A stretch of DNA of 64,000 bases from positions 3,800 to 67,799 of the forward strand of contig JBMSYB010000004.1 of NCBI GenBank assembly GCA_049426285.1, given 5' to 3'. Of this stretch, positions 1,715 through 30,390 are shown piece by piece. A model generated the notes under the pieces. The model saw only the letters and a program-made list of their open reading frames with translations. It was not told the DNA's origin and ran no database searches. Source of the stretch: Burkholderiaceae bacterium. GTDB lineage: Bacteria; Pseudomonadota; Gammaproteobacteria; Burkholderiales; Burkholderiaceae_A. Made by a program: the position numbers and the translations under genes. Within the stretch, counting starts at the first letter, position 1, and each line of letters opens with the position of its first letter.

Positions 1715-2562
1715 GCGGTAGCACTGCTGCTATTTGGCCCTGCGGTATGGGCTAAGAACTTCTCTACGGCAGAGATCACCTCTTGCGGCTGGTCTTTGTG
1801 GGGGGAATGGCCGCACTGGGCAATTTTGTGCAGCCGGGCTTGTGAGACCCGCGCTGCGATTCCGTCAATCTGGGCCATGGTGCCGTACTCATCGTTCTCG
1901 CCTTGGATTGCCAGGACAGGACAGGTAATCGCGTCGAGCTCCGACTCAATCGACCATGCACGAAACCGGGCATCAAGCCAGATATCGTTCCAGCCCCAGA
2001 AGGCGGAGTCAGGCTGCCGATGGTGTCTGCCCAGCCTTTGCTTGAGGTCTGTTGCAAGATAGGCCTCGCGCGCCTTTTGAATGTTCTCTACCGTAATGTC
2101 TTCGACCATGATGTGCGGCGCCGCCACAACAATACCGGCAAGCGACTGGGACTGACGCGCCGCATAGAGCAGGCTGATCGAACCGCCATCGCTGTGGCCG
2201 AAAAGGTAGATAGGCTGATCACTCGGCGCAACCCCAAGCGCCTGAAGAAATGCCGGTAGCACTTCAAAGGCCTGTCGGTGCATGAAGTCTGGCTGCCAGC
2301 GTTCGTTGCCTGGCCGAGGAGTGGAATTTCCATAGCCAGGCCGGGAGTAGACCAGGCCTCGCAGGCCCAGTGTCCTGCAGAGCTGATCCGGAAAGTCTCT
2401 CCACATAGACACCGACCCCAGGCCCTCGTGCAGAAAGACCATGATCGGAGCAGGTGACGGAGCCCAGCGTGTTGCGGGCAGAGGGCTGCTTTCCTCGGTC
2501 GCGTCGGTCCATCGATACTCGATATCGATGCTGCGACCGGCCCAAGATATGCCGACGTTCAC
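1711..2562 (-). CDS. Alpha/beta-fold hydrolase associated with the box cluster
   Basis: FLHEGLGS oxyanion region, GHSDGG nucleophile, QGENDEYG acid and GHSPH histidine. Its start overlaps the ligase stop (2559-2562). Confidence 0.88.
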   Translation of the reverse strand: MNVGISWAGRSIDIEYRWTDATEESSPLPATRWAPSPAPIMVFLHEGLGSVSMWRDFPDQLCRTLGLRGLVYSRPGYGNSTPRPGNERWQPDFMHRQAFEVLPAFLQALGVAPSDQPIYLFGHSDGGSISLLYAARQSQSLAGIVVAAPHIMVEDITVENIQKAREAYLATDLKQRLGRHHRQPDSAFWGWNDIWLDARFRAWSIESELDAITCPVLAIQGENDEYGTMAQIDGIAARVSQARLHKIAQCGHSPHKDQPQEVISAVEKFLAHTAGPNSSSATA

Positions 2563-4199
2563 TTGCTCTGGTGCTCCTGTTCGCGAAGACGAAATCGCTG
2601 GATCTTGCCAGTGGCGGTCTTGGGTAGCTCATCGACAAAGGCAAAAAACCGAGGGTACTTGTAGGCCGCGAGCTTCTCTTTGGTAAAGGCCTTGAGTTCC
2701 TCTTCGGATACCTGCTGCCCCGGCTTGCGCACCACGAAGGCCTTAGTCTTGGTAAGCCCTTCGGCATCGGAGATACCGATGACAGCGGCCTCTAAGATGG
2801 CCGGGTGCTGCATGAGGGTGGATTCGATTTCAAACGGAGAGACATAGATGCCGCTGACCTTAAGCATGTCGTCGCTACGGCCAGCATAGGTGAAGCTGCC
2901 GTCGTCATTCTGCACATACTTGTCACCACTCTTGGTCCAGGCTCCACGAAAGGTCTCCTGCGACTTCTCGCGGTTCTGCCAGTACATCAGCGCACTGCTT
3001 GGCCCGTGAATGTAGAGGTCGCCCACCTCGCCGGGGGCAACGGGCTGGCCCTTGTCGTCACGTAACTCGATGGCATAACCCGGCACTGGCCATCCCGTGG
3101 TTCCGTAGCGCACGCGCCCGGGCTGGTTTGATAGAAAAATGTGGAGCATCTCAGTGGAGCCGATGCCATCGATGATCTCCACGCCAAAGTGCTGAGTGAA
3201 CCGTTGACCGATTTCCGCGGGCAGCGCCTCGCCTGCGGAGGAGCACATGCGTAGCGCTACCGCACTACGTGCAGGCAGATTGGGTGAGGCGAGCATGCCT
3301 GCATAGCCCGTGGGGGCCCCAAAGAAAATGGTGGGCTTGTGGTCGACCCAGCGCTTGAATACCGCATCCGGTGTGGGCCGCTCGGCCATTAAGACTACCG
3401 TTGCCCCCACCGACAGCGGAAATGACAGCCCATTGCCCAGGCCGTAGGCAAAAAAGAGCTTGGCTGCCGAGAAGCAGATATCTGACTCTTGTAGTTGCAG
3501 CACGCGCTTGCCATAGAGCTCGGCTGTCCAATAGGGGTTGCCATGGGTGTGCACCGTGCCCTTGGGCTTGCCAGTAGACCCCGAGGAATAGAGCCAGAAG
3601 GCAATCTCGTCGGCATGGGTGTCCGCACAGGCTACCATCGGGCTGGCCGCATAGAGCGCCTCAATTGCGATATCCGGCGCGCCTAGCGAGGCACTTGGCG
3701 AAGCATTGGCCGACGACGTATCGGCAAGCCCCGACACGATAACCGTCTTGGGCTTTGCCGATGATTTTTCGATCGCCTGGGCGAGGGCAGCCCGCAGAGG
3801 CGCTGAGACGAGCGCAGCCTTGGCCTGGCTGTGCGTCAACATGTAGGCATAGTCGTCTGCTGATAAAAGGGTATTTACCGCCACCGGAACAATGCCCGCA
3901 TAGAGGCATCCCAGAAAGCTCACCGGCCAGTCGTTGCTGTCGTGCATGAGCAGCAAGACACGGTCTTCGCGTTGCAGGCCTTGGTTCAGAAGCCCTTGGG
4001 CGATGCGCTGCGCCCGGTCTTGAAGTTCTCCGTAGCGCAGACTGCCACGGTCGTCGATAAATGCGGGCTTATGGGCCCGTTGGGCATTGACCCGAAAGAG
4101 ATGGTCTGCAAAGTTAAAAGAAGCCCCGGGGGCCGGGACTGCTGCGGCCGATGTCTTGGACTGGTCTAACCCTGTTGCCAGGGGTTCTGCGTGCTGCAT
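2559..4199 (-). CDS. bclA: Benzoate-CoA ligase
   Basis: Adenylation motifs WLYSSGSTGKPKG, AAKLFFAYGLGN, IIDGIGSTEMLHIFLSN, GRSDDMLKVSG and PKTATGKIQR. Lies in a box cluster with a strong AGGAG RBS. Confidence 0.9.
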   Translation of the reverse strand: MQHAEPLATGLDQSKTSAAAVPAPGASFNFADHLFRVNAQRAHKPAFIDDRGSLRYGELQDRAQRIAQGLLNQGLQREDRVLLLMHDSNDWPVSFLGCLYAGIVPVAVNTLLSADDYAYMLTHSQAKAALVSAPLRAALAQAIEKSSAKPKTVIVSGLADTSSANASPSASLGAPDIAIEALYAASPMVACADTHADEIAFWLYSSGSTGKPKGTVHTHGNPYWTAELYGKRVLQLQESDICFSAAKLFFAYGLGNGLSFPLSVGATVVLMAERPTPDAVFKRWVDHKPTIFFGAPTGYAGMLASPNLPARSAVALRMCSSAGEALPAEIGQRFTQHFGVEIIDGIGSTEMLHIFLSNQPGRVRYGTTGWPVPGYAIELRDDKGQPVAPGEVGDLYIHGPSSALMYWQNREKSQETFRGAWTKSGDKYVQNDDGSFTYAGRSDDMLKVSGIYVSPFEIESTLMQHPAILEAAVIGISDAEGLTKTKAFVVRKPGQQVSEEELKAFTKEKLAAYKYPRFFAFVDELPKTATGKIQRFRLREQEHQSK

Positions 4200-29669: not shown

Positions 29670-29754
29670 GCCCGGATGACGAAATCGGTAGACGTACGGG
29701 ACTTAAAATCCCGGGCCGCAAGGCGTGCGGGTTCGATTCCCGCTCCGGGCACCA
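29670..29754 (+). tRNA. tRNA-Leu (TAA)
   Basis: GCCCGGATGACGAAATCGGTAGACGTACGGGACTTAAAATCCCGGGCCGCAAGGCGTGCGGGTTCGATTCCCGCTCCGGGCACCA: anticodon TAA, long variable arm, encoded CCA. Confidence 0.96.
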
Positions 29755-29767
29755 GACTTTTTCGTCG

Positions 29768-30013
29768 TTAAGAAGCGGTCTCTTCCCGGCAGGCGGTGGC
29801 CAAGAACGAGATCTGGTCATGGATGTCTGCAATAACAGGATAGGCCACCGAAGAGGCGGGAAGCGGGTGCCCTGTCTCGGCTTAAGGGGTCAGCAGCGAT
29901 GAAAGATGCTCGGTGCGCTCAGCGATTTTTTCTGCACCAATGTAACGGGCAGCCCCCTTTAAGTTGTGCAGTCGGCGCATGACTGTCCGGTAGTCTTGCT
30001 GCATTAGCCGCAT
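29768..30013 (-). pseudogene. Hpt (histidine phosphotransfer) domain ORF with an in-frame TAA at 29882-29884
   Basis: MRLMQQDYRTVMRRLHNLKGAARYIGAEKIAERTEHLSSLLTP* contains the HxLKGxxxxxGA motif. The frame stays open for 37 more codons (AETGHPLPASSVAYPVIADIHDQISFLATACREETAS*). Not in the ORF track. Confidence 0.65.
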
Positions 30014-30030
30014 GGCAGCGGGGCCGCCGA

Positions 30031-30390
30031 CTACTGTGGCACCTGCTGACCAAGCTGTGCCGCAAGGCCAATCAGGTTGGTGCAGCGCGCGCCGCTTCGG
30101 CAGTAGGCAAGAATGGGGGTGGGCAGGCTGTTGATCAAAGCCCCCATCTCTAGCGCCTGCTCTGGGGTGTGGCCGGTGGAGCCTACAGGATGGTAGGCGA
30201 AGGCCAGACCCATGGCCTTGGCCGCGTCGCTGATTTCAGACTGGCTTGGCTGCATCGGGCCATCTTCACCGTCTGGGCGATTGCAGATCACCGACTTGAA
30301 CCCCGCCTCCTGGGCGGCCGGAATATCCGACGCGGAGATCTGGGGACATACGGCGATTTTGGGCGTAAGCCAACGAACCTCAAGTGTCAT
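30031..30390 (-). CDS. TIGR01244/DUF442 family sulfurtransferase (stand-alone)
   Basis: GFKSVICNRPDGE and ILAYCRSGARC catalytic loop. Confidence 0.87.
   Translation of the reverse strand: MTLEVRWLTPKIAVCPQISASDIPAAQEAGFKSVICNRPDGEDGPMQPSQSEISDAAKAMGLAFAYHPVGSTGHTPEQALEMGALINSLPTPILAYCRSGARCTNLIGLAAQLGQQVPQ

Follow-up and report, generated by a model that had tools for sequence, protein, structure and literature searches.

A truncated Hpt domain, very probably left over from a hybrid sensor kinase gene, between tRNA-Leu(UAA) and a DUF442 gene in a Burkholderiales genome

Background

Does the short split reading frame between tRNA-Leu(UAA) and a DUF442 gene encode a working histidine phosphotransfer (Hpt) protein, or is it what is left of a larger gene? 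The frame lies in the window, which is the whole stretch of 64,000 nucleotides that was analysed, on contig C4 of the genome that we refer to as G000. An earlier note on this DNA had described an Hpt ORF split by an in-frame TAA, at the end of a cbbR-bigR-DUF442 run, and had offered three readings of it: a remnant of a hybrid kinase that was truncated when a cbb/sox block arrived beside the tRNA, a two-helix mini-Hpt that dimerises into a four-helix bundle, and an intact Hpt masked by a sequencing error or by read-through. We conclude that the feature is very probably a 5'-truncated, nonsense-interrupted Hpt-domain remnant of a hybrid sensor kinase, an unremarkable leftover of a gene and not a functioning phosphorelay protein.

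Results

Layout of the locus

The split frame was found as the earlier note had described it, with an ATG (30013..30011) that lies 17 nt past the stop of the sulfurtransferase (DUF442) gene (TAG, 30033..30031), followed by 43 codons, a TAA, and 37 further codons, spanning 246 bp in all (29768-30013). No strand had been named, and because the description fits the minus strand only, all of these positions are read on the minus strand. The 43-codon product contains LHNLKGAARYIGA, and its translation also shows RRLHNLKGAARYIGA, while YPVIADIHDQISFLATAC is encoded within the 37 codons past the in-frame TAA. The frame is open except for this single stop, has no indels relative to its homologues, and retains an intact HNLKG motif. 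Upstream of the ORF on the same strand are the DUF442/BLH_phosphatase gene and then genes for ArsR-family and LysR-family regulators (Pfam), and the terminal TAA falls 14 nt from the 3' end of tRNA-Leu(UAA). The DUF442 product shares 95% amino acid identity with its orthologue in the congener G002, right up to the stop. Coordinates of these features, together with those of the corresponding spacers in related genomes, are given in Table 1.

Table 1. Features of the G000 locus (window coordinates) and of the spacer between tRNA-Leu and DUF442 in congeners (coordinates of the named loci)
Feature	Position	Strand	Length	Description
Remnant segment 1	29885..30013	-	43 codons	Helix that bears the His (HNLKG, His16), plus most of the following one
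In-frame TAA nonsense codon	29882..29884	-		Cys or Tyr at the same column in relatives
Remnant segment 2	29771..29881	-	37 codons	Same Hpt domain continued: loop and last helix
Terminal TAA	29768..29770	-		Near the gene ends of relatives
tRNA-Leu(UAA)	29670..29754	+		ARAGORN; Rfam tRNA, 59.3 bits; left border of the variable slot
DUF442 / BLH_phosphatase-like gene	30031..30390	-		Pfam PF04273, 86.2 bits; right border of the slot
Genome-specific stretch	29755..30021	no strand	~267 bp	tRNA-Leu 3' end to ~9 nt below the DUF442 stop; nearly all Hpt remnant; from the junction comparison
G005 spacer	L015 1856-1887		32 bp	
G024, G013 and G010 spacers	L019 (G024) 1901-2157		257-269 bp	56-aa membrane ORF, other strand
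G002 spacer	L014 647-1509		863 bp	BrnT (86.9 bits) and a CopG-like ORF; toxin-antitoxin pair
G043 spacer	L017 1856-3275		~1.4 kb	PF07399, putative Na+/H+ antiporter
G022 and G008 spacers			gap similar in size to that of G043	
Spacers of other congeners			1.8-6 kb	

At 56.5% GC the fragment matches the window as a whole (57.4%), and its composition bears no trace of recent import. A scan around the ORF found no promoter-like or terminator-like sites. Rfam showed the tRNA alone, and an RNA element at the site was thereby excluded.

Assignment to the Hpt domain

Both the 43-aa product and the 81-aa read-through product exceeded the cut-off of 24.6 bits for the Pfam Hpt family (PF01627), which bears out the claim of the earlier note that the ORF carries an Hpt phospho-His motif. 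The 43 aa scored 31.9 bits (E 1.6e-7) over profile positions 22-58 of 84, and the 81 aa scored 34.5 bits over positions 23-79 of 84. In a six-frame search of the genome the remnant scored 33.3 bits against the same family, and the 37 codons taken alone matched no Pfam family. H16 of HNLKG, the putative phospho-accepting histidine, is invariant across the alignment with relatives. A short fragment may clear a Pfam gathering threshold through one highly conserved motif; here the threshold is passed on the strength of the HxLKG helix, which carries more information than any other part of the profile. The Hpt signal is beyond chance: its E-value holds after correction for the window's ~1000 small ORFs, and each half of the frame is matched by independent homologues. 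A complete four-helix bundle was not found in one chain: matches cover profile positions 22-79 only, and three helices are modelled.

Homologues and the missing N-terminal helix

A phmmer search of 1.84 billion protein representatives found the best full-length matches to be P0002, P0004, and P0007, which align to query residues 3-73 without gaps at 50-52% identity, in each case at the C-terminal end of the protein. In an alignment with relatives, the remnant showed 46-48% identity over ~77 residues, again gapless through the stop. P0004 is a 677-aa hybrid kinase with the arrangement PAS_3-HisKA-HATPase_c-Response_reg-Hpt, and P0002 is identical to its C-terminus. At the column where G000 has TAA, P0007 carries Tyr, while P0002, P0004, and a metagenome contig (L025) carry Cys. 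A Tyr codon (TAY) is one substitution from TAA. The relatives stop 3-4 residues short of the G000 end in the alignment. The remnant therefore has in common with tripartite hybrid kinases (ArcB/BarA/TorS type, represented here by the uncharacterised metagenomic P0004) the HxLKG motif, the C-terminal position, and a stop at about the same place. It differs from a kinase of the P0004 type in being just the last two thirds of the Hpt domain, with PAS, HisKA, HATPase, REC, and the first Hpt helix missing, and in carrying the in-frame TAA.

The continuation past the TAA was examined through L025, a 681-bp ENA metagenome contig (ERZ4206873; GC 49%, coverage 0.94) that encodes P0001, the one match returned by a word-indexed protein search with the 81 aa, whose length window leaves out long kinases. 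In tblastn, the 43-aa half matched L025 with 61% identity over 41 aa. The 37 aa alone also matched it, with 12/23 residues identical (52%; PLPASSVAYPVIADI vs PLPSSSQVYPIIADV; E 4e-7), and because this match is independent of the first half, the continuation past the TAA reflects true homology and not chance. In L025, HATPase_c is joined straight to Hpt in the same frame, with no REC between them. Like the remnant, L025 is interrupted, with an in-frame TAA in the first Hpt helix (Ser in relatives) and, at two codons' distance from the G000 stop position, a 1-nt deletion that shifts the frame; unlike the remnant, it retains the first Hpt helix. The coverage of 0.94 means that its defects may be sequencing errors, and L025 is either a second decayed copy or a product of low-coverage errors. 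Explanations of the TAA by an alternative genetic code or by programmed recoding were rejected, given that relatives carry ordinary sense codons there and that the defects of L025 are at other positions.

Closer relatives were not found in the other collections searched. The 81 aa matched only distant Hpt domains in the genome contigs collection (42-53% identity over short stretches), and P0004 had no close relative there either (best segment identities 26-44%). Among 400 genomes of the order, nothing exceeded 34-41% identity to the remnant, and JGI metagenome contigs scanned with the alignment gave no match.

Relatives have ~33 extra residues at the N-terminal side of the domain (GNPxxFLKLLRIFCxENQG..LIDEI), forming the helix that precedes the His helix, and these are absent from the window. 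In solved Hpt structures (ArcB HPt, YPD1) the His lies on the second helix of a four-helix bundle. Since the preceding helix of the relatives is absent, the fragment lacks bundle helix 1, and it is thus 5'-truncated besides being stopped. The 3' end of DUF442 fills the space in the window where the first Hpt helix would lie, and the upstream in-frame translation of this DNA shows no Hpt similarity. Even complete read-through would yield just three of the four bundle helices. The earlier note had suggested that the 37 codons would supply the missing bundle helix; they are a genuine continuation of the domain, as the L025 match shows, yet the helix on the N-terminal side is still gone.

Single-sequence AF2 modelling of the 81 aa predicted helices at residues 8-24, 28-46, and 57-79, with a mean pLDDT of 80 and the TAA position inside helix 2. 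The model resembles generic three-helix bundles, and Foldseek returned no significant PDB match for it, the best being the CheA P1 domain at E 1.1. A sequence search of the PDB gave just a weak match to a plant HPt (1wn0, E 0.074), in which the layout of the His helix is alike.

These results bear directly on whether an intact protein is hidden here, that is, whether an error of assembly or sequencing produced the TAA, or ribosomes read through it, such that a functional 81-aa Hpt-like protein is made. The frame does stay in register, its second half is homologous, and the Pfam score rises with read-through; the genome also looks like a metagenome-assembled draft (108 contigs), in which a consensus error at the TAA is possible. 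The N-terminal helix decides the matter, however. With profile positions 1-21 replaced by the 3' end of DUF442, the proposal of a masked intact Hpt fails whether or not the TAA is real. The generic fold of the model and its poor best match in the PDB also speak against a functional 81-aa protein, read-through in bacteria is generally lower at TAA than at the other stop codons, and the lack of conservation and of partners described below counts here too. We therefore consider a hidden functional Hpt very improbable.

Phosphorelay partners and a possible small protein

A six-frame search of the G000 genome, which is 96.9% complete, found no Hpt match other than the remnant. It contains 9 REC and 13 HATPase_c matches, and no adjacent pair of the two lies in one reading frame. 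Adjacent HATPase_c and REC matches are in different frames, as expected of a kinase and a regulator encoded by separate genes, and a hybrid kinase in need of an Hpt was therefore not seen. Neither a phosphate-donating hybrid kinase nor a stand-alone receiver for the Hpt was identified in the genome at this completeness. No REC or HATPase_c match falls on contig C4, in agreement with the statement of the earlier note that the window holds no kinase or receiver gene.

A different possibility is that the 43-aa ORF is translated by coupling to DUF442 and works as it stands, its product being a helical hairpin that dimerises into a four-helix bundle, or a decoy that binds receivers, and thereby links the sulfur and CO2 regulators to two-component signalling. 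Its motif is intact, the AF2 model predicts a helix-turn-helix over residues 8-46, and the position of the ATG, so close behind the DUF442 stop, makes some translation of a 43-aa peptide possible. Dimeric four-helix-bundle phosphotransferases are known, for example Spo0B and ChpT, in which the bundle is built from two helical hairpins in the way that the dimerising mini-Hpt would require. These proteins are, however, kin to the kinase DHp domain and not to PF01627, measure ~190-220 aa, and have an extra alpha/beta domain; no sequence relation between them and the remnant was found.

No good Shine-Dalgarno sequence was found in the 17 nt preceding the ATG, the stop shortens the second helix of the hairpin, and the ORF was found in 0 of 29 congeners, which leaves no evidence of selection. 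A natural precedent for a working fragment is the frameshifted rcsD of Yersinia pestis, which yields a small Hpt-only protein, RcsD-Hpt, whose function has been shown (PMC10191623). There, too, a phosphorelay gene is broken and its 3' Hpt part is left as a separate ORF (PMC10191623). RcsD-Hpt nevertheless comprises a whole Hpt domain, and its partners RcsC and RcsB are present (PMC10191623), whereas the remnant in the window is an incomplete domain for which no partners were found. The dimerising mini-Hpt of the earlier note lacks support: the ORF is not conserved, a clear ribosome-binding site is missing, and the genome shows no hybrid kinase to partner it. We regard a working 43-aa protein of this kind as highly improbable. 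We likewise give hardly any credence to the idea that the remnant has been recruited as a micro-protein, an HNLKG peptide of 43 aa (81 aa if read through) that would serve either in phosphotransfer, as a minimal unit, or as a receiver decoy. If true, such a micro-protein would tie the sulfur/CO2 regulon to two-component signalling.

A variable slot between tRNA-Leu and DUF442

To place the remnant in the context of the genus, we compared the interval between tRNA-Leu and DUF442 across congeners. Congeners have the tRNA-Leu together with the sequence to its left, and they have DUF442 at the right border; the content in between is not shared. No DNA match to the fragment (query positions 369-614) was found in any of 29 congener genomes, though the tRNA and DUF442 flanks matched, and blastn found no match to 29755..30021 in the 11 congener loci compared. 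A protein search of 24 congeners at E<=10 gave weak matches at unrelated loci only. The same ORF was not found in related genomes across the 29 congeners, the 400 genomes of the order, the genome contigs collection, and the JGI metagenome contigs.

In the genus, gene turnover has a hot spot at the 3' flank of tRNA-Leu(UAA), where the spacer ranges from 32 bp to ~6 kb and carries differing cargo (Table 1). The junctions were compared using G002, G005, G024, and G010. The order LysR(CbbR)-ArsR-DUF442-spacer-tRNA-Leu is common to G000, G002, G005, and G013. Because this order is shared among congeners, only the spacer content is new in G000, and the regulator run did not arrive and truncate a kinase. 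One of the readings in the earlier note is therefore upheld in part: the feature fits a hybrid-kinase remnant, given that its relatives are C-terminal Hpt domains and that the first helix is gone, but arrival of the cbb/sox block as the cause of the truncation is not supported.

Partial repeats of the tRNA 3' end were observed in two congeners, at G014:C7 15296-15352, ~11 kb from the tRNA at 4057-4141, and at G042:C29 192-217. These repeats suggest integrated islands. No second att-like copy of the tRNA 3' end was found within the G000 window.

The variability of the slot raises the question of whether the kinase gene was ever resident there. The fragment might instead be a scrap of foreign DNA that came to lie beside the tRNA in a single capture event, for instance as the edge of an imprecisely excised tRNA-Leu island. 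Slot content differs in each congener compared, partial tRNA 3'-end repeats of the sort seen in the two congeners are typical of tRNA-targeted islands, and no close relative of the fragment occurs among the 400 genomes of the order. Against a one-step capture, the window lacks a second copy of the tRNA 3' end, no integrase is nearby, and the GC content of the fragment matches that of its host. On balance we find such a capture possible but doubtful. It differs from the decay of a resident kinase gene in the history proposed, while the nature of the present sequence is the same in both.

Discussion

A proposed history of the remnant

Under the preferred reading, a resident hybrid kinase gene that decayed in place, a PAS-HisKA-HATPase-REC-Hpt gene would formerly have occupied the slot between tRNA-Leu(UAA) and DUF442, in the orientation of DUF442. 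It was probably gained horizontally. A deletion would then have taken all of the gene on the 5' side of the helix with the His, a loss of at least 1.8 kb and also of bundle helix 1 of the Hpt domain, with its endpoint ~9 nt below the DUF442 stop. A later point mutation, most simply Tyr TAY to TAA, may have put the stop into the second retained helix. What would remain keeps the HxLKG motif and still scores as Hpt, and it would be unable to form a four-helix bundle and would have no phosphodonor in the genome. The remnant is presumably not expressed.

For annotation, we suggest labelling the ORF as a pseudogene, a fragment of the Hpt domain of a hybrid kinase, and not as a phosphotransfer protein. 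A phosphorelay tie to the cbbR-bigR-DUF442 genes should not be inferred from it. The remnant instead marks the 3' flank of tRNA-Leu(UAA) as a site of turnover in a small-genome freshwater Burkholderiales genus.

Further observations in the genus

Two side observations concern the neighbouring regulators and the wider signalling complement. In G024 (L019) and G010 (L022), a CbbR-like LysR gene follows DUF442, and tblastn detected no ArsR/BigR between them; with ArsR present in G000, G002, G005, and G013, it is not a fixed member of the run. Hpt domains are rare in the genus, occurring in 6 of the 29 other genomes, in unrelated ORFs of ~550-1030 aa. The approximately nine receiver domains of G000 make up a very small two-component repertoire for an autotroph with cbb and sox genes.
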